40,000 nt of DNA from Candidatus Altimarinota bacterium (lineage in GTDB: Bacteria; Patescibacteriota; Gracilibacteria; UM-FILTER-43-11), in the NCBI GenBank assembly GCA_028281045.1, contig JANQKP010000009.1:10508-50507 (forward strand). Reading direction: 5' to 3'. Of this stretch, positions 1,124 through 32,798 are shown piece after piece. Under the pieces are notes generated by a model. The model worked only from the letters and a program-made list of their open reading frames with translations, was not told the DNA's origin and made no database searches. Every line of letters starts with the position of its first letter. The first letter of the stretch is position 1. Made by a program: the position numbers and the translations under genes.

Positions 1124-2155
1124 ATGGCCCTACAAAAAGGAACATCATCGAATTCAAACTTAGATATATTTTCTGGAATCAAAAGTACTGCAGATAATCT
1201 TTCTGAACTCAGAGAAGGAATTGATGTAACCCAAGGTAAATTTGAGGCCGCTCTTAAAGCAGGAAAAGAAATTAAAGAAGGAGTAAATACCCTTAAAAAC
1301 AAAATAACTGAACTCACTCCAGAGCAAGCAAAGGAGGTTGTTAAACAAGCAGGTTTAATAGCCACTCCTTTTGTATTAAAGGAGCTTGGATTCGATGTAA
1401 AAACCCTCTTCGATGAAGAAGAAACTGTAGTGGCTACTCAACCACAGAAAAAGGCTGAAACTGCTGCGCCAGTAGCTGAAGCAACCCCACTAGAAACAGT
1501 GCGTGAAGTGGAAACTCAAATTCAACTTGCCGCCCTGCCAAAAGAACAAAAGCAAAATGCTGAAGCTTTTGAAATGGGAATTAACGATACAGAAAGTAGT
1601 ATTAATAAATATAAGTCTCCTGCCTCACTAGTACAATTCAAAGCTATGTCAGCAGGAAGATGGAATACCCTAGGTGTTCCTGAAAAATTACAAAATGCAG
1701 AAGCAGATGCTCTATTTAAAGAAGGAGTTCCTACTGACTTTGAGGATTTTAAAGCTTACTTAGATGAAACAGGGGTAAATGCTGAAATGCTAAAAAGATG
1801 TGCCCTTGGAGAATTCCAGGTGATTCCAATGTATCATTTTGAAAAAATTGGATTAAATCCAGACAGCCTTGAGGACCTTCATCAATATCTGATGAACCCG
1901 GCTATGCAAGCCCAAATGATGAGAGCACTTACCCTTGAATACGGACAAGCCCTAAATTGGGACTACAAGGCTATGATGGTAATGCACTATGCAGGATTAG
2001 ATGACGCAGAGCTATACCAAAAGAATCCTGATGCGGAAAAATTAAAACAAGTAGCTCCCCACGGATACGATGATATTTTGACCTACGTTAAAAAGGCCTC
2101 AAGAAATATGAAGAAAAGAGGTGGCAACCCAGAAGCACCTACTTTAGGTGCCTAA
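1124..2155 (+). CDS. hypothetical protein (343 aa) with a possible C-terminal lytic-transglycosylase-like (SLT-like) region
   Basis: Tightly packed behind the previous ORF. The C-terminal third carries GEFQVIP ... LMNPAMQAQMMRALTLEY ... MHYAGLDD. This loosely parallels the SLT motif order GLMQ ... DPxxNI..G..YL ... AYNxG. Weak, by-eye similarity only. Confidence 0.55.
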   Translation: MALQKGTSSNSNLDIFSGIKSTADNLSELREGIDVTQGKFEAALKAGKEIKEGVNTLKNKITELTPEQAKEVVKQAGLIATPFVLKELGFDVKTLFDEEETVVATQPQKKAETAAPVAEATPLETVREVETQIQLAALPKEQKQNAEAFEMGINDTESSINKYKSPASLVQFKAMSAGRWNTLGVPEKLQNAEADALFKEGVPTDFEDFKAYLDETGVNAEMLKRCALGEFQVIPMYHFEKIGLNPDSLEDLHQYLMNPAMQAQMMRALTLEYGQALNWDYKAMMVMHYAGLDDAELYQKNPDAEKLKQVAPHGYDDILTYVKKASRNMKKRGGNPEAPTLGA

Positions 2156-3321
2156 ACAATTTTCGCAAAACGACGTTTTCCAACTTTAACGATCATGTCT
2201 TTTTTGACGTCTATTTCTGCATCAATTGCTTCCACTTTTTCATCATCGATCTTAACACCACCTTGTTCAATGGCGCGGCGTGCCTCACTGCGAGACTCAA
2301 CAAGCTTACACTGATCTAATAGATCAATGATATTTGTTTTACCTGAGATCTTAAACTCTGGAATATCGTCTGGAATACCACCACCTTTAAACACGTTTCC
2401 AAACTCTGCATCGGCTTTTTTAGCCTCTTCTTCGCTGTGATACATCGTCACAATTTCACGCGCTAAAGCGGCCTTAATATCTCTTGGGTTTTCTCCTGCT
2501 TTCATCTGCTTGTCGTATTCATCAATCTGTTTCATATCGACATCGGTACAGTAAATGAAGTACTTAAGAATAAGGTCATCACTCATAGACATAATTTTTC
2601 CAAACATGTCTGAAGGTTTATCTGCAATATTCACCGTATTGTTGTAGGTTTTACTCATTTTACGCCCATCGGTTCCTTCAATAAGAGGCGTAGTGAGCAC
2701 ATGTTTCTCTAGTTGTTTGTATTCTTGAAGTAGGTGGCGCCCTGCGAGCATGTTAAACAGCTGATCGGTTCCTCCAATCTCAAGATCCACTTCTAAATGC
2801 ACAGAGTCATACCCTTGCATGAGTGGATAGAAGAATTCATGAAGCCCAATGGGCTTATTTTCTTTCATACGCTGCTGGTACATGTCTCTTTCTAGCATTT
2901 GTTGCACCGTAAATTTACCAGCCAGCTCTACTACGTTTTTAAAGGTTAAGTTTCCAAGCCAGTCGGCGTTGTAAACGATTTCTGCTTTAGAAAAATCGAT
3001 GATCTTACTCGCCTGCTCTTGGTATTTTTTGAAGTTATCTTCAATTTGCTCCTGCGTCAGGGGCTGGCGCATAGCGGTTTTATCCGTAGGGTCTCCAATC
3101 ATGGCTGTAAACGAACCAATGAGGAAAATCACATGATGCCCAGCATTCTGGAAGTCACGCAATTTACGAAGCGGCACTGTATGACCCAGATGAATTTCAG
3201 TTCCTGTAGGATCTACTCCAAAATAAACACGCAGCTTCTTTCCGCCGTCTACTTTTTCTTTAAGACCCTTCTTAGGAACAATAGAGTCTACACCTCTGGT
3301 GAGCATTTGATCTGTAGTCAT
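2152..3321 (-). CDS. tyrS: tyrosine--tRNA ligase
   Basis: Class I HIGH motif (HLGHTVPL), KMSKS motif (KMSKT), and a C-terminal S4-like RNA-binding domain (SRSEARRAIEQGGVKIDDEKV). I prefer the ATG at 3321 (MTTDQML) over the TTG at 3357 used by the ORF track. Confidence 0.93.
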   Translation of the reverse strand: MTTDQMLTRGVDSIVPKKGLKEKVDGGKKLRVYFGVDPTGTEIHLGHTVPLRKLRDFQNAGHHVIFLIGSFTAMIGDPTDKTAMRQPLTQEQIEDNFKKYQEQASKIIDFSKAEIVYNADWLGNLTFKNVVELAGKFTVQQMLERDMYQQRMKENKPIGLHEFFYPLMQGYDSVHLEVDLEIGGTDQLFNMLAGRHLLQEYKQLEKHVLTTPLIEGTDGRKMSKTYNNTVNIADKPSDMFGKIMSMSDDLILKYFIYCTDVDMKQIDEYDKQMKAGENPRDIKAALAREIVTMYHSEEEAKKADAEFGNVFKGGGIPDDIPEFKISGKTNIIDLLDQCKLVESRSEARRAIEQGGVKIDDEKVEAIDAEIDVKKDMIVKVGKRRFAKIV

Positions 3322-3364
3322 CGTTAAAAGTATAGAGAAAGGACTGCCTGCCTTCAACTCTAAA

Positions 3365-4240
3365 CTATTTTTTCTTTCCGTTTTCTACTTTTTCTCCCCA
3401 ATGCAGTTTTTCACGTAGGGTTTGGAAGAAAGATTCATTTGGAAGCCGTATAAAGGTAATGGTCTCCCCCTTTCTTATTCTAATCTTGTCTTTGTATTTC
3501 ACATTGCAAGACTCTTGCCCATCTACGGTTAGGTTCATGAATTTGTAATCGGTTTCCACAGTAATATCTATACGTTTATCGTCTGGAACCACAATAGGCT
3601 TTTGGGTGAAACTGTGTGGCGCAATAGGCGTTAAAATAAACGCCGGAAGACTTGGGTATACAATAGGTCCACCAGCCGAAAGAGAATAAGCCGTAGACCC
3701 TGTTGGCGTAGCAATAATAAGGCCATCCGCATGATATGTGGTCAGCTTTCTATCGTTTACTTTGGTGCGAAGTGAAATCAAACGCGCTAAGGTTCCCTGA
3801 GCAACTACACATTCATTTAAGGCATGGAATTTTTTATATAGTTTTCCATTCCGGTGCACTTCGACGTGCAACATGATCCGCTGATCTTCTTTGTATTCGT
3901 CATGGAAAATTCTTTTTAGGGTCTGATTGATTTTCACTGGAGGAATTTCAGAAAGAAAACCAAGGGTTCCCATATTAATTCCAAAGAATTTGGTATTGAA
4001 GTTGCGGGTTTGGCGTACCACAGAAAGAATGGTTCCATCTCCCCCCATCACAAGCACAAGATCTACAGAAGTTTTTCCACGAATGAACTCCTTATACCTT
4101 CTGCGTCCAATAACTTTAGCCACATGCTTTTCCATGTGCACTTCTTTTCCTTCTTTTTCCAAAAATTCAATCACACGAGAGATCACTTTTGAGTATTTTT
4201 CACACTGACTACGTTTTGAAGCTATTCCAATTCGTTTCAT
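3365..4240 (-). CDS. nadK: NAD(+) kinase
   Basis: GGDGTIL motif, NECV, and [17 protein letters not shown], typical of the PpnK/NadK family. Abuts the upstream glycosyltransferase stop with zero gap. Confidence 0.9.
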
Positions 4241-5356
4241 TTAACCTTTATTAATAGTGTCTATAATCATGGTAGCGGTTTTACCCCAACTGAAGTTCTT
4301 CACTTGTTGAAATCCTTTTTCTCTGAGCTGTCTCCGGTACTCTTCTCCATCTAAAAGCTGAGTAAGGCCATCGGCAATGTCTACAGAGTCATGCGGATCT
4401 ACATAATGCACTGCATCTACTCCAAGTTCTGGAATAGAGCTCACGCGTGAAGCAAGTACTGGCACCCCACATTGCATGGCTTCAAGGACTGGAAGCCCAA
4501 AACCTTCGTAGAATGAAGGGAATAAAAAGACTCTAGCACCTTGCATAAGGGTTGCTAGATCTTCATCTGGAATATATTCTAAGAATTTAACGCGACCGGT
4601 GAGTTTAAACTTTTTCACAGCCTGGAAAATCTTTTTGTAGTACCATCCTTTTTTACCGGCAATCACAAAGCGGTAACGCTGTTGATTAAACGGTGAAATC
4701 ATAGAGTAAGCCTCAAGCGCTCCAATGTAATTTTTACGTGGCTCAAGGGTTCCCGCCATCATAATATAATCTGGATCTAGGTTATAGCGGCGTTGCACTT
4801 CTACAATTTTATTAGTATCGCGATCTCTATTAAATACATCCCGAATTCCTGCATGTACCACCACGGCCTTAGTACTAAGTTGAAAATCTGGATAACGTTC
4901 GATTAAATCTTTTTTAGTGTATTCAGAAACAGTAAACACCCACTTACTTTTTTTAGCCGCGGCTCTTAGGGTCATGCGCTCAATAAAGGTCGCTTTCTTT
5001 TGGTGCTTGGCGGGCGATTTAAAGGCCACCAGGTCATGCACCACAAGACCTACATTGATTTTTTCAGGGTCATGTAAAAACGGAACAATGTAAGACTCTG
5101 TTGCCATTAAAACATCAATCTTGTTTTTAATGAGAGATTTATAAAAATGAATGTGCCAAAACAGCCCCTTTCCCCACACGTTCACGACGTGAACATTAGG
5201 AAGGTGTTTATACTTATTACTCCAGTCTTTATTGGTATATAAGTAGTATTCGTTGTCGCGATCGTTATTTAAGATACTTTGGAGCACATTGGCGGTCCAG
5301 ATACCTTTTCCCCCACGTGCGCCATCAATCCCCCTGATGTCGAATGCGATTTTCAT
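4241..5356 (-). CDS. glycosyltransferase, family 4 (GT-B fold)
   Basis: C-terminal EGFGLPVLEAMQCGVPVLAS signature (E-x7-E type) of GT4/GT1 retaining glycosyltransferases. First gene of a GT4-nadK-tyrS minus-strand operon. Confidence 0.85.
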   Translation of the reverse strand: MKIAFDIRGIDGARGGKGIWTANVLQSILNNDRDNEYYLYTNKDWSNKYKHLPNVHVVNVWGKGLFWHIHFYKSLIKNKIDVLMATESYIVPFLHDPEKINVGLVVHDLVAFKSPAKHQKKATFIERMTLRAAAKKSKWVFTVSEYTKKDLIERYPDFQLSTKAVVVHAGIRDVFNRDRDTNKIVEVQRRYNLDPDYIMMAGTLEPRKNYIGALEAYSMISPFNQQRYRFVIAGKKGWYYKKIFQAVKKFKLTGRVKFLEYIPDEDLATLMQGARVFLFPSFYEGFGLPVLEAMQCGVPVLASRVSSIPELGVDAVHYVDPHDSVDIADGLTQLLDGEEYRRQLREKGFQQVKNFSWGKTATMIIDTINKG

Positions 5357-5476: not shown

Positions 5477-6334
5477 ATGAAATTACACCGCGTTAAACAC
5501 ACCATTAAAAGACTAAGCCCAGAAGAAAGAGTGGCCGGAGCTGGAGCGCTTCTTGTGCTACTTGGTTCTTTTTTCCCATGGTACTCAGTAGTCTTCAATT
5601 ACGATAAAGATCCTATTATTGAAAATGGATTCACCGGTGACCTTGGGGTGATTGGTTTTGTGGCCTTTTTACTGGCTCTATTTGCCCTGATTAACCTAGC
5701 CAGTGAGAACCTGCACATCAAACTCCCTAGCTTTGGATATACCAAAGAGCAGATCATGATGTTCTTTATGGGAGAATCTGCTTTCCTGATTCTTTTACTG
5801 ATCGCGGTATACACCAAGCGTTCTTTTGATTTCACTAATGCTAGCCTGCGCTTTGGAATCTGGATGGCTCTGATTGGAGCTTTAGTTGGAACCTTTGCGG
5901 CTTACGCCCAAGTGCAGAAGAAAAACCAGAAGAATGTAGAAGCCTTCTTCGATCATGCAGAAGAGGAAGAGGCGACAGAAGAGGCCGAAGACGACGATGG
6001 TGAAATGTCTTTCCGCCAAAAGATGGAAATGGAAGCTCAAAAGAATCAAGAAGAAGAGATTGAAGCTGCTGCAGAACAAACCGAGCTTGCAGACTTTGTG
6101 GATAACGATGAAGATGAAGCTGAAATCATGGTAGAAGAAACTGAAGTTACTCTTGAAGTAGAAGAAGAACCTCTAGAAGCAGACAGCTCTCAGAGCGACT
6201 TCTTTAAAAAAGAAGCTGGAGTGAGCCAAGAGGAAGAAACCATGGAAGAGGCGGACGAAGAAGAAAATAACAAGACTAAAGACAAGGGAATCGATGCCAT
6301 CAGCATGGATTTCTATGATGATGAAGAAGAATAG
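5477..6334 (+). CDS. membrane protein (about 4 TM helices) with a long acidic Glu/Asp-rich C-terminal tail
   Basis: Four hydrophobic stretches in residues about 20-150, followed by about 130 aa of E/D-rich low complexity. No family recognised. Confidence 0.6.
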   Translation: MKLHRVKHTIKRLSPEERVAGAGALLVLLGSFFPWYSVVFNYDKDPIIENGFTGDLGVIGFVAFLLALFALINLASENLHIKLPSFGYTKEQIMMFFMGESAFLILLLIAVYTKRSFDFTNASLRFGIWMALIGALVGTFAAYAQVQKKNQKNVEAFFDHAEEEEATEEAEDDDGEMSFRQKMEMEAQKNQEEEIEAAAEQTELADFVDNDEDEAEIMVEETEVTLEVEEEPLEADSSQSDFFKKEAGVSQEEETMEEADEEENNKTKDKGIDAISMDFYDDEEE

Positions 6335-6381: not shown

Positions 6382-6717
6382 ATGGCAGATGAGATTTCTT
6401 ACAATGCATCGGACGATATAAACCCTGGTGAACCTCAAAAGGTTGATAAGGATTACATCGAGATCATCGAGTCTAATGTCGATGATAAAGACCCTAAGAT
6501 CTTCTCAGATCAAGGAGTAAGTGCAGACCTATATTATTACAGTCCAGAACATAAAAAGATTGTATGGCAGGTCAAAAGACAAGGTAAGAAATTAAAATTC
6601 ACTTCTGCCGAAGAAGACTCTAAAGGTTCTGCCCTTGTATGGGGCACCCAAAGGTCTCTACAAAGCTTCTACAAATTACAAGACGAAGACTTTGTAAATC
6701 CAAAAGAACAAAAATAA
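6382..6717 (+). CDS. hypothetical small acidic protein (111 aa)
   Basis: ORF directly served by the promoter at 6345-6372. No recognisable motifs. Confidence 0.55.
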   Translation: MADEISYNASDDINPGEPQKVDKDYIEIIESNVDDKDPKIFSDQGVSADLYYYSPEHKKIVWQVKRQGKKLKFTSAEEDSKGSALVWGTQRSLQSFYKLQDEDFVNPKEQK

Positions 6718-11073: not shown

Positions 11074-11102
11074 TTGCAGAAATGCCCTATAAATGCTATA
11101 AT
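11074..11102 (+). promoter_or_regulatory. sigma70-like promoter: TTGCAG, 17 nt, TATAAT
   Basis: -35 at 11074-11079 and -10 at 11097-11102. The ORF-track start (11082) lies inside the spacer, whereas the ATG at 11112 follows the -10 by 9 nt. Confidence 0.65.
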
Positions 11103-11111
11103 ACGCGCGAT

Positions 11112-12215
11112 ATGTTGTCCCCTTCCCAAAACATGCACCCATATAGAAATAAAAAATATATTTTTGGCTTAGGAAAGCCTGCGCGGCTTGTATTAAATGG
11201 AGAAAACCCTAGGTTTAATAACTCTATAGATTTCAGTGATTTAGGAAGTGACCTTGGAAGCTCTGGAAGAAAAGACCTCGATATCGAAGAGCCTGTAGTG
11301 GCTGAGGGCTTTGAAGATGCTCCAGCGGACGTAGAAATATCTCCAGATGCACTTGAAGCACTTGCAGAAGAACAACGTAGTCGCTTTGCAGGAACAGTGC
11401 AGCTAGAAGAAGGTGAACAACTAGTAGATCTTTCGGCAGAAGACGTAGCAGATATGCTCCCAGACGATACTAAAGTGGGAGATGGCACTGAAACCACCAC
11501 AACAGGTGAGCCTTTTAAGGATGCTGATGATGAAATAAGCGACATTACTCACACTGCCATAAAAGCTGGGGAAACTGTAGACACCACCAGATATGACACC
11601 ACAGATACGGACGTGGGAGAACCCCCTAAGAAACCGGTTCTTTCTGCAGAAGAGGGAGAAGAAAATGCGGAAGAAAGACTGTTAGATACCATGGAATTAA
11701 CCCTGAGAGCCAGCCTTAGCAGCAACATAAGACAATTAAAAACTGAACTTGGTAAAGTTAGTCCAGGATGGAGAAAGGCTATTACCGTGCAACATGCAGT
11801 AGCTGCCTTTGAAAAAGCAGATCAGGAAGCAGATGGAAACCAAAAGAAAAAATCTAAGAAAGAAGCACTGATCGATCTAGCTAATGACTTAGGCTTTAAC
11901 AATACAACTACCCTGGCTGAACTACATGATCAGTTTTATGTGCCAATGGGACAAAAAGGATTTAAAAAGGCTGACTACGAAAAAAGAAGGTTGTATCTAT
12001 CAGCAGTAAGTCAGTTCAATCGTCTTCTGGAAACCATGCTAAAAATGACTGAAATCGCTAAAGACAAGGGCTTGGCCAAGCTCGTTGGAGGAGATCTTCA
12101 AGAACAAGTGATGGCACTGGATAAATCTGGACAAGAGGTAGCAACCTTCAACCTAGAAACTGGAGAGGTAGGAGACTCTAGTTCAAGTGAGTGGATTCCG
12201 GTCCAAGGCGCCTAA
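11112..12215 (+). CDS. hypothetical acidic protein (about 367 aa), no recognisable family
   Basis: Long ORF. Start moved to the ATG at 11112 (MLSPSQN...) because of the promoter at 11074-11102. The N-terminal half is D/E/T-rich and the C-terminal third is helical. No TM segment or signal peptide. Confidence 0.6.
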   Translation: MLSPSQNMHPYRNKKYIFGLGKPARLVLNGENPRFNNSIDFSDLGSDLGSSGRKDLDIEEPVVAEGFEDAPADVEISPDALEALAEEQRSRFAGTVQLEEGEQLVDLSAEDVADMLPDDTKVGDGTETTTTGEPFKDADDEISDITHTAIKAGETVDTTRYDTTDTDVGEPPKKPVLSAEEGEENAEERLLDTMELTLRASLSSNIRQLKTELGKVSPGWRKAITVQHAVAAFEKADQEADGNQKKKSKKEALIDLANDLGFNNTTTLAELHDQFYVPMGQKGFKKADYEKRRLYLSAVSQFNRLLETMLKMTEIAKDKGLAKLVGGDLQEQVMALDKSGQEVATFNLETGEVGDSSSSEWIPVQGA

Positions 12216-12639
12216 TTTCATCAAGAGCAGCGTCTTCCGCCATTTGCTCATGGTGGTCTTTTACGATGCCCCCTAGCCATTCTTTGGCATGCTGCTCTCC
12301 ACCAGTAGATTTTTTAATTACTGGATGCTCCTCGTGATCTCCACTCCATTCAAGTTGGAAATCACCAATAAGCTCAGCTCTCTCTTCTTCAATCACCTTA
12401 ATAATACTAGTAGCCACCTCAAAGATGCGCTTTGGCTCTAGATTCAGATGACCTTCTTCATCTAGATGCTGCGCGTGCATAAGACCTGCTTTGTGCAGCT
12501 CTACAGCGGCTACTTTAGCATGTCCGTCATCATTTTGGGGCGCTGGCGTTCCTGTATAAGGAATAGCCTGCACATCTAAGTTGATGTCACTATTTAAATC
12601 CTGTGAGCCAGCTGAATTTACATCCATAAGATAAGTCAT
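12178..12639 (-). CDS. hypothetical His/Glu-rich protein (about 153 aa)
   Basis: The minus-strand promoter at 12671-12699 excludes the upstream TTG and ATG starts, so the ATG at 12639 (MTYLMDV) is preferred. The 3' end overlaps the convergent gene by 38 nt. Confidence 0.55.
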   Translation of the reverse strand: MTYLMDVNSAGSQDLNSDINLDVQAIPYTGTPAPQNDDGHAKVAAVELHKAGLMHAQHLDEEGHLNLEPKRIFEVATSIIKVIEEERAELIGDFQLEWSGDHEEHPVIKKSTGGEQHAKEWLGGIVKDHHEQMAEDAALDEIRRLGPESTHLN

Positions 12640-12670
12640 TAAGAAAAGGGGCTTTTTTAGAAGCAAATGC

Positions 12671-12699
12671 ATTTTATCAAAAATAGGTGTTTTTATCAA
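12671..12699 (-). promoter_or_regulatory. minus-strand promoter: TTGATA, 17 nt, TAAAAT
   Basis: On the minus strand, -35 is at 12699-12694 and -10 at 12676-12671. Its -35 lies 8 bp from the -35 of the divergent GGDEF promoter. Confidence 0.6.
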
Positions 12700-12704
12700 T
12701 ATCG

Positions 12705-12736
12705 CCCTTGAAAAATGAACCCATTTTTGGTATAAT
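12705..12736 (+). promoter_or_regulatory. promoter: cccTTGAAA, 17 nt, (TGG)TATAAT
   Basis: -35 at 12708-12713 and -10 at 12731-12736. ATG codons at 12740 and 12743 follow immediately, so a leaderless transcript is likely. The cccTTGAAA core and ATTTTTGGTATAAT string match the promoter at 14191-14222. Confidence 0.7.
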
Positions 12737-12739
12737 AAT

Positions 12740-13843
12740 ATGATGGAAAAAAATAAAAATACACCAGAGGATATCTATAGAAACTATAAAGAAGGTGAAG
12801 ATCTAGCACTACCAGGATCTGAATTCCCTGTAGCTTCAGCATTTCCAGAAGAAGCTCTTGAAACCCTAGAGCCACTTACTCCTATGCAGGAGGCAGAGGA
12901 AATCATTAAAAATCTCTCTAAAGAACATCTTTCTGAATTAGATGAAATAGAAAGAGATGCTGTAAAAACTGAAGCGATGCGCATCATGGAAGAGTCAAAA
13001 AAAGCTCACCAAAGCTGGCTTCAAAAAATGGGAATCATTAGCGGCGATGTCGACCCAAGTGTTCACCTTGGTCCAAATGTTGGAATTCCAGTTGAAGTAG
13101 CTTTTGAGCAGGCTAAAGGCCTGGTTCAAGCAAAAAAGCATCTTATTGTTATGGGAAGGCAACTTGTTGAAGCCGAGACCAGTGGAAGAGTAGACGCCCT
13201 TACTGGCATTGCTAACAGAGGTGAATTCGACAGACGCATGGAAGCAGAATATGAGCTGGCCAACAGAAACGAAACAAACCTAAGCGTTATAATTCTTGAT
13301 TTAGATTACTTCAAGAGAGTAAACGACGTAGTTGGTCACAAATGTGGAGATGACACCCTTCGTATCATGGGTGAAATCCTTAGAAATAACAAAAGAAAGG
13401 GGGATATTGTGGCTAGATATGGAGGAGAAGAGTTTGCTGTAATACTTCCAGGAGCTGACGACTGGCAAGCCGCCCGATATGGAGAAAAACTCAGAAAAAA
13501 AGTAGCCGAAAGCCTAAATAAAAAACTTATGGAAAAGCCATACTCTTGGCCGGCCTCTGAGGTTGAAAAACTTCAAGGGACTGCTTCTGTTGGGGTTTGC
13601 TACTACAAAGGAAGTAATAATGAAGATGAGCAATTCACTCTTGATCAGATACTTGGGGCAGCTGACAAAGCAATGTACGGTGCTAAAGAAACGAGAGATG
13701 ACATCGACCTAATCAATCTTAATAAGCCTGTTTACGATCAAGAAGTAGTAAAAGCCATTCTAGAAGAAAATGGCATCATCGAAGGATCAGACGAATATAC
13801 ACACCTATTTGATGCCTTTGTACCTGAGGCTAAGCAAGGCTAG
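12740..13843 (+). CDS. diguanylate cyclase (GGDEF domain) with an uncharacterised N-terminal region
   Basis: LTGIANRGEFDRR, ILDLDYFKRVNDVVGHKCGDDTL and RYGGEEFAVIL (GGEEF at 13421-13435). An RxxD inhibitory site (RKGD, 13394-13405) sits 5 residues upstream, and ADKAMYGAKETRD follows. No TM segment and no known sensor domain in the first about 150 aa. Confidence 0.9.
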   Translation: MMEKNKNTPEDIYRNYKEGEDLALPGSEFPVASAFPEEALETLEPLTPMQEAEEIIKNLSKEHLSELDEIERDAVKTEAMRIMEESKKAHQSWLQKMGIISGDVDPSVHLGPNVGIPVEVAFEQAKGLVQAKKHLIVMGRQLVEAETSGRVDALTGIANRGEFDRRMEAEYELANRNETNLSVIILDLDYFKRVNDVVGHKCGDDTLRIMGEILRNNKRKGDIVARYGGEEFAVILPGADDWQAARYGEKLRKKVAESLNKKLMEKPYSWPASEVEKLQGTASVGVCYYKGSNNEDEQFTLDQILGAADKAMYGAKETRDDIDLINLNKPVYDQEVVKAILEENGIIEGSDEYTHLFDAFVPEAKQG

Positions 13844-14090
13844 GAATATCTTGTAATTGCTTTATTGTTTTTGGCCCTTGTTTTGTTTGTATTTTTAGAA
13901 CTCCATCCTCAAACCTAGCGTCGAGGTTTAATTCGGCAAGTATGCCAATGACAACCTCATGATCCCCAATGGCCATGGCTGCTCTAAATCTCTCAGAAGC
14001 AACAAGCTGAGGGGTCTCAACGAAGCTTTCATGCGCACTAATATGTGTCACATTATCTAAATGATGCTTTTTATCGGGTTTATTTCCCAT
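13830..14090 (-). CDS. hypothetical small protein (86 aa)
   Basis: ORF with its own near-consensus promoter (14115-14142). Its 3' end overlaps the GGDEF gene by 14 nt. Confidence 0.55.
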   Translation of the reverse strand: MGNKPDKKHHLDNVTHISAHESFVETPQLVASERFRAAMAIGDHEVVIGILAELNLDARFEDGVLKIQTKQGPKTIKQLQDIPSLA

Positions 14091-14114
14091 AGTAAAACAC
14101 GAACAAAGGTTGTT

Positions 14115-14142
14115 ATTGTAGCAGCTATTCTTATTTTGTCAA
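14115..14142 (-). promoter_or_regulatory. minus-strand promoter: TTGACA, 16 nt, TACAAT
   Basis: On the minus strand, -35 is at 14142-14137 and -10 at 14120-14115, with a 24-nt leader to the ATG at 14090. Confidence 0.65.
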
Positions 14143-14190
14143 CTATTTTTCCCCTATTTAGCCGCTTTAGTGCTTATTTATACCCTTTCT

Positions 14191-14222
14191 CCCTTGAAAT
14201 TTTACCCTATTTTTGGTATAAT
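14191..14222 (+). promoter_or_regulatory. promoter: cccTTGAAA, 17 nt, (TGG)TATAAT
   Basis: -35 at 14194-14199 and -10 at 14217-14222, with the ATG at 14237. Shares the cccTTGAAA core and the ATTTTTGGTATAAT string with the GGDEF promoter at 12705-12736. Confidence 0.7.
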
Positions 14223-14236
14223 TATTAGATAAATTT

Positions 14237-16522
14237 ATGAAACAAAACCAAGAAAACATCCTAGGAGAAAACGAAAGATTTGTTTACCAGAATGCCGTAA
14301 GCGCAGATCAGCAGTCTCAAACGGCTGAAGCTGCCCCTGCAGGCATCCCTGAAAATCTTAAGGAAACAGCTCCAGCTGAAGCAGCTCCTACTAAGGAACC
14401 TGTAGTAATGGATAAAGCTACTGAACCTAAGAAACTAGGATTTTTCACTAAACTAAAATACACCCTGTTCCCTACTCTAGATACGAATAAGAAACCAGCT
14501 AAAGCCCCTATTACTAAAGAGGACGTAGCGGCGCTAAATACAGAAGGAAAACCAGCGGAAACCGCTGAGAAACCAGTAGATAAAAAAACAGAAGCGCAAC
14601 AAATCCGCGAAGCGGAAAAGATCTATAAACAAGGTCTTGTAACCATTAAAGATCTTATGGCTCCATCTTCTATGGAGTTCATGTACGACAAATACCGTGT
14701 AAGCGGTGTGCATGCAAAAAGCTTCTTTGTTTATGCTTATCCACGCTTCTTGGAAGCGAACTGGCTAAGCCCTATCATTAACTTCGATGTATCAATGGAC
14801 ATCTCTATGTTCATTTATCCATCAAGTAGCGCTTCTATTATGAAGTTCCTTAAGAATAAGGTGGCGCAACTTCAATCTTCTATGCGTATTGAAGCTGAAA
14901 AAGGTATGGTGGCAGACCCTGCCCTAGAAACCGCACTTCAAGATGCAGAAGAACTTCGTCGTAGCATTCAGCGTGGAGAAGAAAAATTCTTCCAATACGG
15001 ACTATACTTCACTGTTTATGCAGATGACGAAGATAAACTGAAAAAAATCCAAACCAGACTAGAAAGTGCCCTTGGAGGGAAGCTAATTCTTACGAAATCA
15101 GCAGACCTTCAACAAGAACATGGGTTCAATTCTACGATTCCTCTAGCAACAGATGAGCTGGAGATCACTCGTAATATGAATACCGCTCCACTTTCTACCA
15201 CTTTCCCTTTCAGCTCAAGTGATCTTACCTCTAATAAAGGGATTCTATATGGTATTAATCGTCATAATGACGGTCTTATCATTTTCGATCGCTTCGATCT
15301 AGAAAATGCTAACTCTGTGGTATTTGCGAAATCTGGTGCTGGTAAGTCATATGCTGTAAAACTAGAGATTCTTCGCTCTATGATGATGGGAACAGACGTT
15401 ATTGTTATAGACCCTGAAAATGAATATGAAGAACTCGCTAATACGGTAGGAGGAACCTATTTACGTGTATCGCTGAACAGTGATCAACGTATCAATCCTT
15501 TCGATCTTCCTCTGGCGCTTAAAGATGAAGAAACTAAGCCAGGAGATCTATTAAGATCTAATATCATTACCCTTCATGGACTTCTGAATCTGATGCTTGG
15601 GAAACTAACCCCAGAAGAAGAAGGTCTTATGGATAAGGCCCTTATAGACACTTATGCGCTTAAGGGAATCACTATGGATACCGTAAATCCAGGTGAGCTT
15701 ACGCCTCCAACCATGCAGGATCTATACGATATTCTTTCGAACACAAAAGGAGCAGAAAACCTAGCTCAAAGATTACAAAAGTATACAGTTGGAACCTTCT
15801 CTGGAATCTTTAATCAGCCTACAAATGTAGACCTAGGTTCTGGACTGGTTGTGTTCTGTATTCGTGACCTAGAAGATGCACTTCGCCCTATTGCGATGTA
15901 CATCATTCTTAATTACATCTGGAACCGCGTTAGATCTAGCCTTAAACGTCGTCTTCTTATGATCGATGAGGCTTGGACCATGATGCAACACGAAGACAGT
16001 GCAAGATTCCTATACGGACTTGTAAAACGTGCTCGTAAATACTACCTAGGGATTACAACGATTACCCAGGATGTGGAAGACTTTGTGAAATCTGAATACG
16101 GTAAGCCAATTATCACAAATAGCTCTATGCAATTACTGCTTAAGCAGTCTCCAAGTGCTGTAGAGCCACTGACTAAAATATTCAACCTTACAGAAGGTGA
16201 AAAATACCTACTACTTAACTCAAGTGTAGGGCAAGGACTGTTCTTTGCAGGACTTAAACACGTGGCGATTCAAATCATTGCTTCATACAATGAAGACAAA
16301 GTAATTACCACAAACCCACAAGCGGTTCTTGAACAACGTGCAACCGAAGAGCAAAGCTTCGAGCAGCCACAAGAACAAGCTGCAGCACCTGTAGCAGAAG
16401 CTGCTCCTGCAGCGGAAGCTCCAGTAGAGGAAGTAGCTCCAGAAGCTACCCCTGTAGAAACTCCTGCAGAGCCAGAAGAACCTCAGGCTCCAGCGGAAGG
16501 AGATCTACCAGCCGCCGCTTAA
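14237..16522 (+). CDS. VirB4/TrbE/TraE-family type IV secretion ATPase homologue with disordered N- and C-terminal extensions
   Basis: Walker A FAKSGAGKSYAVK (about 15334-15348) and Walker B LLMIDEAW (about 15953-15976). The N-domain pattern YPRFLEANWLSPIINFDVSMDISMFIYP is typical of Gram-positive-type VirB4 proteins. About 130 aa of Pro/Ala/Glu/Lys-rich N-terminus and a 60-aa PAxE-rich C-terminus. Confidence 0.85.
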   Translation: MKQNQENILGENERFVYQNAVSADQQSQTAEAAPAGIPENLKETAPAEAAPTKEPVVMDKATEPKKLGFFTKLKYTLFPTLDTNKKPAKAPITKEDVAALNTEGKPAETAEKPVDKKTEAQQIREAEKIYKQGLVTIKDLMAPSSMEFMYDKYRVSGVHAKSFFVYAYPRFLEANWLSPIINFDVSMDISMFIYPSSSASIMKFLKNKVAQLQSSMRIEAEKGMVADPALETALQDAEELRRSIQRGEEKFFQYGLYFTVYADDEDKLKKIQTRLESALGGKLILTKSADLQQEHGFNSTIPLATDELEITRNMNTAPLSTTFPFSSSDLTSNKGILYGINRHNDGLIIFDRFDLENANSVVFAKSGAGKSYAVKLEILRSMMMGTDVIVIDPENEYEELANTVGGTYLRVSLNSDQRINPFDLPLALKDEETKPGDLLRSNIITLHGLLNLMLGKLTPEEEGLMDKALIDTYALKGITMDTVNPGELTPPTMQDLYDILSNTKGAENLAQRLQKYTVGTFSGIFNQPTNVDLGSGLVVFCIRDLEDALRPIAMYIILNYIWNRVRSSLKRRLLMIDEAWTMMQHEDSARFLYGLVKRARKYYLGITTITQDVEDFVKSEYGKPIITNSSMQLLLKQSPSAVEPLTKIFNLTEGEKYLLLNSSVGQGLFFAGLKHVAIQIIASYNEDKVITTNPQAVLEQRATEEQSFEQPQEQAAAPVAEAAPAAEAPVEEVAPEATPVETPAEPEEPQAPAEGDLPAAA

Positions 16523-16536
16523 TTAAATTAAATAAC

Positions 16537-16571
16537 AAAAAAGCAGTAAGAATAACTTACTGCTTTTTTTG
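16537..16571. terminator. bidirectional rho-independent terminator
   Basis: A 9-bp stem agcagtaag/cttactgct (16542-16550 and 16556-16564) with a 5-nt loop, flanked by an A-run upstream and a T7 run downstream. Sits between convergent genes. Confidence 0.85.
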
Positions 16572-17229: not shown

Positions 17230-17670
17230 TTAAGACATCGCAGGCTCAAATTGCTTGATAACAAGTACAGGCATCATTCCAACGTGGAAAGTAGCCTCCA
17301 GGGCGGTCTCCAGCCGCGCCTGATCTATCATTTCAGGATCATAATAACCATAAACAGTACTGCGTCCGTATAAACGACACTCTAAAGTGTCATCTACAAG
17401 TTCAATTTCAATCTTTCCACCACCTTTAATGGCGTGCTTTACTGCATTGCTTTCAGGATGCTCAATATCACACTCTCCCACTATTCCATTGTGGTAAAAA
17501 ATCTCAGCGTCCCATTCTATTTTAGGAACCACTTTGATGATCAGTTTTCCAGCATCGGTTACCACAAATTTGCCTTTATAAAATTTTACATCATAAAGCT
17601 TGGAGAAATCTGCACCCCAAATCTTAACGTCGGGCAGCTCGCTTAATTTTTGAATATCTGACTCTGACAT
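17230..17670 (-). CDS. hypothetical protein (146 aa)
   Basis: Clean ORF between the MIP gene and tRNA-Val. No family recognised. Confidence 0.55.
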   Translation of the reverse strand: MSESDIQKLSELPDVKIWGADFSKLYDVKFYKGKFVVTDAGKLIIKVVPKIEWDAEIFYHNGIVGECDIEHPESNAVKHAIKGGGKIEIELVDDTLECRLYGRSTVYGYYDPEMIDQARLETALEATFHVGMMPVLVIKQFEPAMS

Positions 17671-20190: not shown

Positions 20191-20994
20191 ATGCGTCTTA
20201 AAATCTTTTCTCTTTTTGTGGCCACACAACTTATATCCCTTGGGATATTTAATGCCCTGCATGCAGGAGCATACGAGGCTGCCCCAATTGAAAACACGGC
20301 AGTACATGCCGCTTCTGATGAAGTAGCGAGCCATGTGCGTTTTGCTGCACAAGATGTGAATAATGAATATCATACGATTTCATATGCCGATGAAGACTTT
20401 GCTAAACAAGTGATGGCCAATCTTCCACAAAGACATTACGGAACCCTTAAAAATCTAATCATTGATAATGATCCCAAAGCCCGCCGTGGGCTTGGAGGAA
20501 GATCTATGATCATTCTTCGTGGAGTGAATATGGGTAAAGCCGAAACGGCTGCTGTACTTGTACATGAAATTGGACATGTTACAGACCTTGGATACTTAAG
20601 TGGAACCAAAGCCTCTGGAGTATCCGAATTTAACGACGGAAAATTTAATATCTACAATGATGATCTTTCTCTTCGTTTCTACAGAATAAGTTGGGAAACC
20701 GAAAAGAAATTAAAGAAAACTTCTAGCAATCTAGACTTTGTTTCTGGATATGCTATGTCAGATCCTTTTGAAGATTTTGCTGAAACCTACGCTTTTTACA
20801 TTCTGCATAATGCCAAGTTCAGACAGCTTGCTTCTACCAATGACGCGCTAGCAACGAAGTATCATTTCATGAAAAATTTCGTCTTTAATGGAGAAGTTTT
20901 CGATGATCATTCTGTAGCCAAAGTAAATGAAAATCGTAGACCTTGGGACATCACCGTTCTAGGTTATAATTTTGATGAATTTATTAAACTATAA
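20191..20994 (+). CDS. secreted putative zinc metallopeptidase (HExxH)
   Basis: N-terminal signal peptide (MRLKIFSLFVATQLISLGIFNALHA). HEIGH motif in VLVHEIGHVTD and a downstream DPFEDFAETYAFY segment that could supply the third ligand, as in gluzincin/MtfA-like proteins. Family assignment is tentative. Confidence 0.6.
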   Translation: MRLKIFSLFVATQLISLGIFNALHAGAYEAAPIENTAVHAASDEVASHVRFAAQDVNNEYHTISYADEDFAKQVMANLPQRHYGTLKNLIIDNDPKARRGLGGRSMIILRGVNMGKAETAAVLVHEIGHVTDLGYLSGTKASGVSEFNDGKFNIYNDDLSLRFYRISWETEKKLKKTSSNLDFVSGYAMSDPFEDFAETYAFYILHNAKFRQLASTNDALATKYHFMKNFVFNGEVFDDHSVAKVNENRRPWDITVLGYNFDEFIKL

Positions 20995-21437
20995 TGGCAG
21001 AGGTAGTAAGATTAGAAGAACATCGGGAAGAAAATGATGAAACCACTAGAAAGGAAAGGCTTATAAATAAACTTAGAAGTCTTGCTAGCTCTATACTTAA
21101 GGTGCCTAGATTCAGAAACATAGAGATTAGGCGCTTTCATGAACTACAAAGAGAATATGCAGAGTTTTCTTTGGCAATAGATAAATATAATGAAAATCGG
21201 GAATTCTTCAGAAGGAAAATAAATCCCGCTATGGTAGATTTAGATATGAATATAGAGGAGTCATTTAGCACTTATGAGCTAGAGAAACTAGGGGCCAATC
21301 TATGCTTTATTCTTGGAGAAATAACCATGAGTGAAGAAAGCTTTGGAGCTGGAGAAAAATGCAGAAAAGCAGCCGATACCTTCGAAAGAGCCGCTAAAAG
21401 ATGGCAATTACTTAGGCAGGCTGGCATTATTTCTTAG
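20994..21437 (+). CDS. hypothetical helical protein (147 aa)
   Basis: Its ATG overlaps the upstream TAA (TAATG), indicating translational coupling. No signal peptide and no family recognised. Confidence 0.55.
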   Translation: MAEVVRLEEHREENDETTRKERLINKLRSLASSILKVPRFRNIEIRRFHELQREYAEFSLAIDKYNENREFFRRKINPAMVDLDMNIEESFSTYELEKLGANLCFILGEITMSEESFGAGEKCRKAADTFERAAKRWQLLRQAGIIS

Positions 21438-26862: not shown

Positions 26863-29634
26863 TTATTTTTTATTTTGTTTACCTTTAGAAGTCTTTTTCT
26901 TTGGCTTCTTTTCCTCGGTTTTCTTTTCTTTTTTAGGCTCTTCCTTTTTCTCCTCTTTCTTCTCTTCTTTTTTAGGAGCTGCTTTAGCTTTTTCTTCTAT
27001 CTGCTTTTTACCTTCATTTAAAGCTTTGCCACTTTCACTCCAACGTTTGATCTTATCCTCCACTTCTTCGCGTGGCGTGCAGTATCTTTCACGTGAAATA
27101 CGTACGATTTTATCTCTGCGATCTTCATCGTGCTCCAGCTCTGGTGGTGGCATAGTAGAAAGCGAGAAAGTAGGGGTTGGCATACCATCTACCATAAGCT
27201 TCATGTAAGCGTTGTATTTAGGAATGGTTACAATGTCGTTAGGCAGTGCATCTTCAGCAAACTGCGCTGAGAACACCTCAGCGTCTTCGTAACCCACTTG
27301 GAACGTAAGTAAACTACCCACATTACCAAATACGGCGTCACGTACCTCATCTGGCATCTGTGCGATGTACTGATTCGCCATAACCAGGTTAAGTTTATAC
27401 TTACGTGCTTCAGAAAGAATCACGGCAAAGGCATCTGTCGCAAAGTTTTGGAACTCATCGACGTAAAGATAGAAATCTTTACGATCTTTTTCGGCAGTAT
27501 CGGCGCGGCTCATCGCATCAAGTTGGAACTTGGTAATAAGCATTGAACCAAGGAGTGCAGAGTTATCATCTCCGATGAGACCTTTAGAAAGATTTACAAC
27601 CACAATCTTACCGGTGTCCATCATAAACCTGAGATTCACGGTAGATTTCACTTGCCCTAGAATATTTCTAATCACAGGACTAGAAAGGAATTGTCCTACC
27701 TTATTCTGAATAGGCGCAATAGCCTCTGTTCTTTGGCGAGGATCGAATTTAGCAAATTCATCGAGCCAGAAGCTGCGTACCATAGGATTACTTACCTTAG
27801 AAACCACCTTACGGCGATAATCTTGGTCCACAAGAACACGCATCACTCCAAGCATAGAAGTATTTGGATACTCTGCAAGAGATAGGAGTGTATTTCTAAG
27901 AATATGTTCTAGACGTGGCCCCCAAGAGTCTGCGTACATCTTTTTAAATACCCCAAGGAGTCCAGAGGCAATGAGATTTCTCTTCTCTGGCGTATCCCCT
28001 GTTTCAAGCATGTTAAAGGCAAACGGATGAGACGTGTCTGAAGGATCTAGAATCACTACATCGTTCGTTCTATTACTTGGAATAAAGTCTATTACAGCAT
28101 CGGCAAGATCTCCATGCGGATCAATCACGGCAAGTCCTTTGCCGCGTTGCACATCAGAGAAGATCATATTTTCAAGCAGTACGGATTTACCCATACCGGT
28201 TTTACCGATGATATACATATGTCTACGACGATCCACCTGTTTGATTCCAAACTTCTGACTATGTCCACGGAAATTAGATTTCCCAATAATGGTGAGTTCA
28301 TCGTTATCGGCTCCGCCGGCCACAGGCAGGTTATGCGGTGGCTCAAGCTTACGTGAGTGAAGCCAATGTACATTAGGCGTTCCTACATCTTTATTTGGCA
28401 TATGATACAGCGTAGCGATCTCTTCTACGTTCAGCATCATTGGAGTACCAACCGTACGTGTTTGATAGCGCTTGAATAACGCTGAATTATTTTGATTGAT
28501 CTTAGAGATTTCAAACCCATTTAGATTCGGCATATTGAACTGGCGGAAAGAACCTGCGATTTCATTCAGTTTTACTTCCGCTAGGTCAATATTTTCTCGG
28601 CGCATCACATAAACCAGGCGAATAGCAGTATCGAAAGTAAGACGAGTTACCTTATCTACCCCTGCTGAAATAGGATCTTCACGATCATGATTACGTGATA
28701 CTTGCTCATCTAAATCATCTGCAGTAGCGCTAGAGCTTTTCATTGGCAGTTCTGTGCGACTAATCCCCCTTTGAATCCAGAAAAATAGGAAAACAGGAGA
28801 AAGTAAGAAGCGTTTCCAGAACCCACGCACTAAATAAGTATTAGTGGCGAACTTCTTCAGCCAGAAAACACTTTCGTAAAGTCCACTGCTTACGAGCTTT
28901 AAGCATTTAAGCCCACGAATTCTCCACCAGTCCCCTGTTGGTTGAACCACAATTTGCACCCAGGCTTGTTCATCGGTTGCATTCAGCTTAGAAAGCGTAG
29001 CGGTGATCCCAGCCAGTGGCTCTGTAGCGAGTCTTGTCAGCTTATCTTCAAACTGTGGGTATCTTTTAATCGGATAAATTGCTGGATCAATGAGCTTAAG
29101 CTCTGCAGTAGCCATATAATGGGTCTTTGCATGCTTGCTGTGCTCTTTCATTGGCACAGGCATCGCCTCTTCTCCAGGTTTTACTTCCACCGGCATTGGC
29201 GCAGGCATTTCTTTCTCTACCTTACTCGTCACATGCTCTACGGCGCTAAAGCTTTGCTGAGCATAATCGGGCACTTCTTCAATTTCTACATCTGGGTACT
29301 GCGCGTAAATCTGAGATTCAATCACATTCTTAAAACGCTTAGGCGTCCAAATAAAGAATTGGATCAGATTATTCACCGAAGCAATCTCTAAACTAATGCG
29401 AGGTCTTAATTTTCCTGCAAGATAATCCCAGAAAGAATAATTTTCTTCTATACCATGAATAGCGGCATAGATTTGCTCTGCCACAATAGGACCACGTTCA
29501 TTCAGTTTCGAAACGGCCACTCTAAGTACGGTGCTTTCTTCCGCATTCTTGTTAACGCTTCGCCTTATACTAATAAGTATGCGGTACGCCACAAGGAGCG
29601 CGATCAGCGCTGCTAGCGGTAATAGTATTGTCAT
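26863..29634 (-). CDS. VirD4/TraD/TraG-like coupling-protein-family P-loop ATPase with a large N-terminal domain of unknown function and a Lys/Glu-rich tail
   Basis: Walker A IIGKTGMGKSVL (28183-28206) followed by VIDPHGDLA, and Walker B FYLYVDEFQNF (about 27450-27475). N-terminal TM helix (MTILLPLAALIALLVAY) plus a second hydrophobic segment near residue 290. About 470 aa precede the ATPase with no recognised family. The C-terminus is KKEEKKEEKKEEPKKEKKTEEKKPKKK. The ATG at 29634 is preferred over the GTG at 29670. Confidence 0.75.
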   Translation of the reverse strand: MTILLPLAALIALLVAYRILISIRRSVNKNAEESTVLRVAVSKLNERGPIVAEQIYAAIHGIEENYSFWDYLAGKLRPRISLEIASVNNLIQFFIWTPKRFKNVIESQIYAQYPDVEIEEVPDYAQQSFSAVEHVTSKVEKEMPAPMPVEVKPGEEAMPVPMKEHSKHAKTHYMATAELKLIDPAIYPIKRYPQFEDKLTRLATEPLAGITATLSKLNATDEQAWVQIVVQPTGDWWRIRGLKCLKLVSSGLYESVFWLKKFATNTYLVRGFWKRFLLSPVFLFFWIQRGISRTELPMKSSSATADDLDEQVSRNHDREDPISAGVDKVTRLTFDTAIRLVYVMRRENIDLAEVKLNEIAGSFRQFNMPNLNGFEISKINQNNSALFKRYQTRTVGTPMMLNVEEIATLYHMPNKDVGTPNVHWLHSRKLEPPHNLPVAGGADNDELTIIGKSNFRGHSQKFGIKQVDRRRHMYIIGKTGMGKSVLLENMIFSDVQRGKGLAVIDPHGDLADAVIDFIPSNRTNDVVILDPSDTSHPFAFNMLETGDTPEKRNLIASGLLGVFKKMYADSWGPRLEHILRNTLLSLAEYPNTSMLGVMRVLVDQDYRRKVVSKVSNPMVRSFWLDEFAKFDPRQRTEAIAPIQNKVGQFLSSPVIRNILGQVKSTVNLRFMMDTGKIVVVNLSKGLIGDDNSALLGSMLITKFQLDAMSRADTAEKDRKDFYLYVDEFQNFATDAFAVILSEARKYKLNLVMANQYIAQMPDEVRDAVFGNVGSLLTFQVGYEDAEVFSAQFAEDALPNDIVTIPKYNAYMKLMVDGMPTPTFSLSTMPPPELEHDEDRRDKIVRISRERYCTPREEVEDKIKRWSESGKALNEGKKQIEEKAKAAPKKEEKKEEKKEEPKKEKKTEEKKPKKKTSKGKQNKK

Positions 29635-29729
29635 ATTATTTACATCACGTGGATGCGGGCACCAGACCACAATGAATCATTGAGAATGGACCACGTATTT
29701 ATTATACCTTATTTTAGGGGAAAACGCCA

Positions 29730-31448: not shown

Positions 31449-31509
31449 AAAGTAATTTAAAAAACTAAGGCTTATACCTTATATAATAAGTAAGCGGAAG
31501 GATTCTATA

Positions 31510-32745: not shown

Positions 32746-32773
32746 GCGCCTATTATAGCAAAAAATGGGCAAT

Positions 32774-32798
32774 AAAAAAACCCGAAGGTACCTTCGGG
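32774..32798 (-). terminator. rho-independent terminator after gyrA
   Basis: An 8-bp GC-rich stem cccgaagg/ccttcggg (32781-32798) with a 2-nt loop, followed on the minus strand by a T7 run. Confidence 0.85.

Follow-up and report, generated by a model that had tools for sequence, protein, structure and literature searches.

The window analysed here, a 40-kb stretch of a Peregrinibacteria chromosome (candidate phyla radiation, CPR), contains at 11074–16522 a block in which the gene of a diguanylate cyclase (GGDEF-1) and that of a VirB4-type ATPase of a type IV secretion system (T4SS) are accompanied by three orphan open reading frames (ORFs), here called orphA, orphB and orphC. The block is bordered by MraY on one side and by a MIP channel on the other, as identified by Pfam, and it raises the question of whether its five genes belong to a single system. 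A sequence-only reading had proposed that they do, as an accessory, co-regulated module in which synthesis of cyclic di-GMP (c-di-GMP) is coupled to the ATPase and the orphans are partners or substrates. The five genes, with the order, strands and sizes given in that reading, are borne out by the ORF list and by profile matches. As to how they belong together, we lean towards a different answer, in which the block is a composite of a conserved virB4 and a variable slot upstream of it, and not one module.

We gathered 160 virB4 loci by scans of species-representative genomes and metagenome contigs, called ORFs in all of them, and labelled these with the window proteins and with a GGDEF hidden Markov model (HMM). 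Eight further contigs with precomputed Pfam labels were added to the comparison, giving ∼168 related loci overall. In the window itself all ORFs of at least 100 aa, except shadows of larger genes, were scanned for protein families.

The virB4 gene (14237–16522, + strand) encodes a protein of 761 aa that matches NCBIfam NF045971, the VirB4-like conjugal transfer ATPase of the CD1110 family, with 379.6 bits (cutoff 325; E=3e-113). Both its Walker A motif (GAGKS at residue 367) and its Walker B motif (DEAW at residue 577) are invariant in 26 homologues, and residues 328–688 match the solved VirB4 domain of PDB 4AG5 (E=3.6e-51) as well as TrwK (E=8e-6). The NF045971 match begins at profile position 177, profile positions 1–176 being unmatched in the window protein; its residues 1–∼125 are of low complexity and rich in Ala, Pro, Glu and Lys, with a short conserved KKxGFFxKLKxTLFP motif, and precede the VirB4/TraC core. 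More than 120 homologue clusters are 66–84% identical to it and, where named, are assigned to Candidatus Peregrinibacteria or Patescibacteria, and the best 160 virB4 loci in two collections are all CPR-like, spanning the CPR classes at 49–82% identity. The position of virB4 on the chromosome is fixed between housekeeping genes in dozens of genomes, and its identity, 60–82%, follows the lineage of the host; in the window the flanks include RecA, DnaB, MraY, RNase HII and GyrA. The scanned window proteins comprise no integrase, relaxase or recombinase, and the block has a GC content of 0.40–0.43, the same as the rest of the window, with native codon usage. Because its chromosomal identity is conserved, integrase and relaxase are lacking, and GC content and codon usage are native, we consider virB4 a core gene, and the proposal that it is accessory is not sustained.

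By these profile and homology matches VirB4 is the chromosomal ATPase of a T4SS already described in Patescibacteria, which is chromosomal, lacks a relaxase and derives from the FATA class of mating-pair formation (MPF) systems (MPF-FATA), and hence from monoderm (Gram-positive-type) conjugation systems (Quinonero-Coronel et al. 2025, Microb Genom, PMC12102498). It is reported to be essential for epibiotic growth in cultured Saccharimonadia, and in the class Gracilibacteria its other parts rarely lie beside virB4 (PMC12102498). The window conforms to this description, in that its VirB4 is of the CD1110/monoderm-conjugation type and is encoded on the chromosome among housekeeping genes with no relaxase nearby, and the other parts are not clustered with it. 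No further MPF component (VirB3, VirB6- or VirB8-like, pilin) was recognised within 10 kb on either side of virB4. The sole other T4SS-like gene in the window encodes a VirD4/TraD-like coupling ATPase of 935 aa (26863–29670, −), 10 kb from virB4, with Pfam matches to TrwB_AAD_bind (1.8e-08) and TraG-D_C and with NCBIfam TraD and CD1115 matches below their cutoffs; it probably belongs to the same T4SS as a second, dispersed component. It sits between a prephenate dehydrogenase/dehydratase fusion gene and a glycosyltransferase gene, and the T4SS genes here are dispersed among housekeeping genes. What sets the locus apart from the published system is the cyclase, since PMC12102498 makes no mention of GGDEF or c-di-GMP, whereas the window and 11 other Peregrinibacteria loci have a cyclase gene upstream of virB4. 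The suggestion that the arrangement is not a described system does not hold for VirB4; the GGDEF link goes unmentioned in PMC12102498, the one paper on T4SS neighbourhoods in Patescibacteria.

In the clade to which the window belongs the loci share the frame RecA-DnaB-MraY-[slot]-VirB4, and it is the content of the slot that varies. Among the 18 other loci of the clade the slot has a GGDEF gene in seven, is empty in seven and holds other cargo in four, so that with the window counted eight loci have a slot GGDEF and 11 do not. Six loci (L003, L082, L083, L084, L162 and L165) carry a GGDEF gene (+) followed by a small reverse ORF, and in L163 this two-gene unit, GGDEF(+)/small reverse ORF(−), occurs twice in tandem (1422–4742). 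The slot is empty in L002, L085, L086, L087, L166, L167 and L168. It contains an aminotransferase gene and a dCache-HAMP-HisKA-HATPase sensor kinase gene in L004 and L088, the kinase lying directly upstream of virB4 (L004 7766–9940; L088 3680–5857) with the aminotransferase gene before it, an aminotransferase gene with transporter genes in L169, and the gene of a membrane protein in L164. In the window the slot reads orphA(+), orphB(−), GGDEF(+), orphC(−). The two GGDEF copies of L163 are 41% identical, and the tandem has the same +/−/+/− layout as the four slot genes of the window. In L169 an rve-family integrase gene with HTH_38 (insertion sequence-like) lies 3 kb downstream of virB4 (11081–12097); no other mobile-element gene was seen close to virB4 in the clade.

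The sister clade has another frame, L31(−)-PKD(−)-GyrA(−) || VirB4(+), in which the slot is usually an empty gap of 120–160 nt; a slot GGDEF is present in four of 32 loci (L015, L091/L092, L097 and L104) and absent in 28, and a few loci have other genes there. In most other Peregrinibacteria (at least 28 loci) the L31-PKD-GyrA block directly precedes virB4. In the window this block lies at 30870–35554 (−), 14 kb downstream of virB4, so that a rearrangement separates the two frames and put RecA-DnaB-MraY beside virB4. Across both frames the slot GGDEF is always directly upstream of virB4 and on the same strand, in 11 distinct Peregrinibacteria loci besides the window. When ∼1,830 flank ORFs were searched with the GGDEF HMM, only slot genes were matched, the exception being GGDEF-2 of the window (37100–38662, −, 520 aa), a second GGDEF protein that is encoded 20 kb off and is unlinked to virB4. 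These recurrence counts are raw, without correction for phylogeny. In a crude neighbour-joining (NJ) tree of 156 VirB4 proteins from CPR-like loci, those with a slot GGDEF occupy five positions, all inside the Peregrinibacteria clade and none in another CPR class. The adjacency of GGDEF and virB4 is clearly non-random in position, and it survives both the change of frame and tandem duplication, which is the usual signature of functional association. The GGDEF-virB4 pair recurs in some relatives, and the orphans recur in none.

GGDEF-1 (+, from an ATG at 12740 or 12743 to 13843) is a cytoplasmic diguanylate cyclase of 366–367 aa, matching Pfam PF00990 with 129.1 bits (cutoff 23.8; E=1.7e-37) and TIGR00254 with 138.1 bits (cutoff 37.4; E=2.3e-40). 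The domain spans residues 150–319, with the active site GGEEF at residue 228; residues 219–232 read RKGD-IVARY-GGEEF, placing an RKGD I-site five residues upstream of the active site, and the catalytic, metal- and GTP-binding positions align to those of WspR. With its catalytic and I-site motifs intact, the cyclase looks active. In its GGEEF motif, RxxD I-site and conserved metal and GTP positions it resembles WspR and PleD, stand-alone cyclases with product inhibition, although unlike these it has no receiver, PAS, GAF or transmembrane sensor domain; its N-terminal ∼140 aa are acidic and unique, with no detectable homologue. GGDEF-1 has no full-length orthologue, the best match being 34% identical over 48% of the query, and it scores 158.8 bits against the HMM built from the virB4-linked GGDEF proteins of the clade. 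The slot GGDEF proteins of the relatives bear a coiled-coil-like C-terminal extension, which GGDEF-1 lacks. Two cyclases are thus encoded among the ∼35 genes of the window, and no EAL, HD-GYP or PilZ protein was seen there.

The sequence-only reading had also given each of the five genes a near-consensus sigma70 promoter. A consensus scan that lists sites with a −35 matching at least 4/6 recovers four of the five, with 10–11/12 matches and a TG extension. These are the promoters of orphB (12671–12699, −; TTGATA-17-TAAAAT, 10/12, with TG and an inverted copy of the core CCTATTTTTGATAAAAT), of GGDEF-1 (12708–12736, +; TTGAAA-17-TGGTATAAT, −10 TATAAT, 11/12, with TG), of orphC (14115–14142, −; TTGACA-16-TACAAT, 11/12, with TG) and of virB4 (14194–14222, +; TTGAAA-17-TGGTATAAT, −10 TATAAT, 11/12, with TG). 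The orphA promoter (11074–11102, +; TTGCAG-17-TATAAT) has the extended −10 TGCTATAAT and a weak −35 that matches 3/6; it is missing from the scan because its −35 falls below 4/6, and ‘near-consensus’ is an overstatement for this site. The two back-to-back divergent promoter pairs are real, those of orphB and GGDEF-1 forming one of them. Near-consensus −35/−10 pairs are common in intergenic regions of the window, and TGNTANAAT is found eight times in the 40 kb against nine expected. Five of these eight matches lie within the 3.2 kb of 11094–14222 (that of the orphA promoter at 11094–11102), each in the right position and orientation for one of the five genes, and this clustering of promoters in the block is non-random. 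The orphA ATG at 11112 follows the −10 by 9 nt, and the two possible ATGs of GGDEF-1 follow theirs by 3 and 6 nt; from these short distances both mRNAs are probably leaderless or have a very short leader. The orphB ORF is open up to 12672/12699, both upstream starts lying inside its own promoter.

The promoters of GGDEF-1 and virB4 lie within a direct repeat of 43 nt (copy 1, 12702–12744; copy 2, 14188–14230; 79% identity), and cccTTGAAA and the 14-nt string ATTTTTGGTATAAT are exact in both, as had been noticed before. The bases identical between the copies are the −35 hexamer, a T-tract, the TGn, the −10 hexamer and a few spacer bases. The GGDEF-1 promoter type also drives the GGDEF gene in L003, L082, L083 and L084, and in the relatives examined virB4 has an orthologous extended −10 promoter ahead of it. 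Promoters that combine an extended −10 with an upstream T-tract are rare in these genomes: TTGNNN-N12-14-TNTGNTANAAT occurs 17 times in 170 kb of clade loci, against roughly 0.8 expected by our own estimate, and 15 of the 17 occurrences precede GGDEF or virB4. We considered whether the 14-nt string belongs to a generic promoter of the genome and rejected this, since the extended −10/T-tract type is almost confined to GGDEF and virB4 promoters in those 170 kb. Two types can be told apart. Type A, CCCTTG...AGGC..TTTTTTGGTATAAT, follows MraY and drives GGDEF where this is present, or virB4 directly in L085, L087, L088 and L002; type B, GCATTGAGTTTTCCTCTGAAAT.TG.TAAAAT, is the virB4 promoter of L086 and of those relatives that have the GGDEF gene. 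In the window there are two type A copies, one on either side of GGDEF and orphC, from which the shared string appears to be a duplicated core-promoter cassette, that is, a local duplication of a core promoter and not evidence for a dedicated regulator. The co-regulation read into the string does not follow from it, because it covers the polymerase contacts (−35, T-tract, TGn and −10) and relatives carry the same cassette. What the duplication would imply is similar, strong and probably constitutive transcription of GGDEF-1 and virB4.

The explanation that we propose for the locus brings these elements together. The virB4 gene is a conserved, chromosomally fixed T4SS ATPase gene. It has a strong extended −10 promoter to itself and ends at a bidirectional terminator (16537–16569; 14-bp stem with an A-run on one side and a T-run on the other) that separates it from the convergent MIP gene. 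The slot upstream changes its contents from genome to genome, here being occupied by a stand-alone cyclase and three genome-specific, acidic, soluble ORFans, and its genes would each be transcribed from an extended −10 promoter of their own. The GGDEF and virB4 promoters are two copies of the 43-nt cassette, standing as direct repeats on either side of GGDEF and orphC, and recombination between them would remove these two genes and leave ‘MraY, promoter, virB4’ as is seen in L085 and L087. The ORFans may be fast-evolving or newly arisen lineage-specific genes and not conserved components. As for the cyclase, it may recur in the slot because its c-di-GMP feeds T4SS assembly or activity, or a linked surface or attachment behaviour; we hold this last step only tentatively, and doubt it slightly more than we believe it.

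The recurrent adjacency, together with the lack of GGDEF genes elsewhere in the flanks, makes a functional link between c-di-GMP and the T4SS plausible, although we would not yet put it on the better side of an even chance. There are precedents, in that c-di-GMP acts directly on secretion and pilus ATPases such as FliI and HrcN, and on ClpB2 (PMC4591828), and on MshE-type ATPases through the MshEN domain (PMC5013675). Like these, the window associates the gene of a second-messenger synthase with that of a secretion ATPase; unlike them, VirB4, VirD4 and their neighbours have no MshEN or PilZ motif, and VirB4 is not an F1-like rotary ATPase. We found no report in the literature of c-di-GMP acting on VirB4, or on a secretion ATPase in CPR.

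Several observations weigh against a functional pairing. The coupling that had been proposed stands in so far as the adjacency recurs (seven of 18 clade loci, four of 32 in the sister clade), but 11 of the 18 close relatives and 28 of the 32 sister-clade loci have virB4 with no GGDEF beside it, so that the adjacency is dispensable. No receptor for the product was detected either: motif searches revealed no PilZ or MshEN motif in VirB4, VirD4, the orphans or the conserved hypothetical protein p146 discussed below, and no c-di-GMP riboswitch was matched by Rfam at E up to 1. Slot cargo elsewhere is unrelated (the aminotransferase and transporter genes and the membrane protein described above), and includes proteins that read by eye as a cyclophilin-type isomerase and a HicB-type antitoxin. 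The linked GGDEF proteins are only 30–46% identical outside close pairs, their N-terminal regions are unrelated, and database GGDEF proteins often outrank other virB4-linked ones in BLAST; the orthology of GGDEF-1 with the linked copies of the relatives rests on position and promoter and not on sequence ranking. Moreover, virB4 has a promoter of its own even in loci whose GGDEF gene ends 74–83 nt upstream, and the two genes are not an operon. Finally, the NJ tree is crude, and shared ancestry could be the source of much of the recurrence.

Several of these observations also speak for the strongest alternative. It holds that the history is neutral: the slot would be an insertion-tolerant hotspot beside a strong promoter, where a GGDEF gene landed once or a few times and was kept by synteny inertia, with the orphans as neutral filler and the cyclase functionally unconnected to the T4SS. 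In other lineages the slot is empty or taken by a variety of unrelated genes, repeated losses of GGDEF have occurred, there is neither GGDEF-virB4 operon structure nor a receptor motif (by PilZ, MshEN and riboswitch searches), and in these small genomes the RecA-DnaB-MraY and L31-PKD-GyrA synteny is well conserved anyway. Against this reading, all 13 of the non-window flank GGDEF genes are in this slot and on the strand of virB4, with none among ∼1,900 other flank ORFs. The pair also survives behind either MraY or GyrA, two different upstream frames, the unit has remained next to virB4 in L163, where it is duplicated in tandem, and the slot is occupied by another signalling protein, the sensor kinase, in L004 and L088. 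A slot gene of L107 that read by eye as a receiver domain was not confirmed by Pfam and is not counted as a signalling gene. We take a neutral history as a serious contender, albeit one with the odds against it, and retain the composite of conserved virB4 and variable slot as the reading that we prefer.

The remaining proposals turn largely on the orphans. OrphA (11112–12215, +; 367 aa, pI 4.5) and orphB (12178–12639, −; 153 aa from a start downstream of its own promoter, 7% His, pI 4.8) are convergent with a 38-nt overlap, a terminator-like hairpin (12237–12256, +) lying just 3′ of the orphA stop codon, and orphC (13830–14090, −) encodes 86 aa. All three are acidic and soluble, without a hydrophobic segment. 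None has a match in Pfam, NCBIfam, PHROGs or PADLOC, nor by tblastn in the ∼168 related loci; for orphC these loci and the four profile libraries are the scope of the search. OrphA found only itself among 5.8e9 proteins, and an exhaustive HMMER search of 1.84e9 representatives with orphB returned itself and one weak match (E=7.8e-4), to a protein of 2034 aa without a Pfam domain. Structure prediction gave no identity either, as the single-sequence AlphaFold2 models of orphA (predicted local distance difference test score, pLDDT, 41.9) and orphB (pLDDT 38.0) are both unusable; the N-terminal half of orphA is predicted to be disordered and its C-terminal half helical. The idea, drawn from the tandem units of L163, that orphA is a decayed GGDEF paralogue was dropped, the clade GGDEF HMM scoring it at −0.4 bits. 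In the annotated frame the codon scores of orphA (0.30) and orphB (0.33) are within the range of real genes (0.22–0.54), and that of orphC (0.11) is weaker, yet the best of its six frames, so that by codon usage the orphans are probably expressed genes native to the lineage. ORFans are common in this genome and not special to the block, since six further window ORFs are without a Pfam match (5–1120, 1124–2155, 5477–6334, 6382–6717, 20994–21437 and 36593–37096), the two largest of which (371 and 343 aa) have coding signals of 0.44 and 0.40.

With no homologue in any related locus, the orphans cannot be conserved partners of VirB4, and on these searches that part of the original proposal is excluded. 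Relatives that lack orphA and orphB altogether still carry the GGDEF-virB4 pair. OrphC occupies the position of the small reverse ORFs of the relatives, which are on the − strand in L003 (1145–1558), L082 (5201–5605), L083 (5315–5758), L162 (4410–4724), L163 (2510–3067 and 4323–4742) and L165 (4343–4729). These encode 104–185 aa, are divergent from virB4, overlap the 3′ end of GGDEF and have no Pfam match; they constitute a fast-evolving family of seven members, connected by BLAST links that are mostly between 1e-4 and 1e-25 (extremes 4e-61 and 0.007), with the C-terminal motif G(H/L)L..(E/D)Q(I/V)...(E/D)xG...I. Against the HMM of this family orphC gives E=8.6 and orphB is not listed, and pairwise z scores are at most 2.9. 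A C-terminal motif common to orphC and the small reverse ORFs, seen by eye, was supported neither by shuffle tests nor by the family HMM.

A second gene is associated with the slot cyclase in the relatives. The product of p146 (17230–17670, −) is a conserved hypothetical protein with tblastn matches of 42–47% only in L003, L082, L083, L084, L162, L163 and L165, all of which have a slot GGDEF, and tblastn finds it in none of the roughly 160 others. Its family matches, to Janus/Ocnus (Pfam E=0.0028) and staphylococcal nuclease (PDB E about 0.06), are all below threshold. The co-occurrence of p146 and GGDEF could reflect co-inheritance or a functional partner. A more ambitious model would have a dedicated c-di-GMP unit, made up of the cyclase, the small divergent partner and perhaps p146, control the CPR T4SS via VirB4 in some Peregrinibacteria, with the slot ORFans as rapidly turning-over substrates of the T4SS; we regard this as unlikely, if worth stating.

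Still less probable is a single co-regulated system of all five genes, with the orphans as partners or secreted substrates of a VirB4 machine that the cyclase controls, and we would be surprised if it proved correct. The extended −10 promoters on all five genes, clustered as they are in the block, speak for such a system, and the orphans, which appear truly coding by codon usage, share with many effectors an acidic, soluble and partly disordered character. Strain specificity is frequent among effector genes, which makes the lack of conservation compatible with an effector role. Nonetheless, no orphan recurs in the ∼168 related virB4 loci, orphA and orphB are without homologues in the large protein collections and their structure predictions are unusable, relatives with the GGDEF-virB4 pair do without both, and the promoter sequence that is shared consists of core polymerase-contact elements. 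It is hardly credible that the block is a mobile island, the remnant of a horizontally acquired integrative conjugative element (ICE) or other conjugative element carrying virB4 and cargo, since the descent of the VirB4 family from monoderm conjugation systems, the naming of NF045971 for the CD1110 conjugal transfer ATPase and the VirD4-like gene in the window are outweighed by the lack of integrase, relaxase or recombinase among the window's proteins, by GC content and codon usage like those of the surroundings, and by the fixed position and lineage-tracking identity of virB4.

Diguanylate cyclase genes are carried as cargo by SXT/R391-type ICEs. The window resembles these in having a GGDEF gene beside a conjugation-type gene, and differs from them in that the locus is not a mobile element, being without integrase and relaxase and fixed in its chromosomal position.

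Two features of the wider window may be mentioned here. Gene orientation changes from mostly + to mostly − at the junction of virB4 and the MIP gene, the site of the strong bidirectional terminator, and the cumulative GC skew of the window has its maximum near 14 kb; the switch of orientation and skew around 14000–16570 could be a replication-terminus-like switch or a plain gene-strand effect. In the L31-PKD-GyrA block a TGCTATAAT extended −10 (32752–32760, −) falls within the 5′ end annotated for the PKD-domain gene; this ORF starts with TTG at 32772, and with the promoter element inside it the true start is probably further downstream.

If the adjacency proves to be only historical, the finding is an ordinary one, of a known ATPase, a common signalling enzyme and three ORFans. 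The element that we consider mildly new is the recurrent, lineage-restricted pairing of a cyclase, in the relatives together with a small partner ORF, with virB4. The locus also illustrates how a compact CPR genome varies, with genes that come and go in a single slot beside a conserved gene, and insertions and deletions at that slot may both come about through the duplicated promoter cassette. Few machines are conserved throughout the candidate phyla radiation as the T4SS is, and a cyclase recurring upstream of virB4 is a concrete lead to the question of whether c-di-GMP binds or regulates VirB4 or the T4SS. Were a dedicated c-di-GMP unit of this kind to exist, it would be the first second-messenger link to the apparatus that these epibionts need on their hosts.

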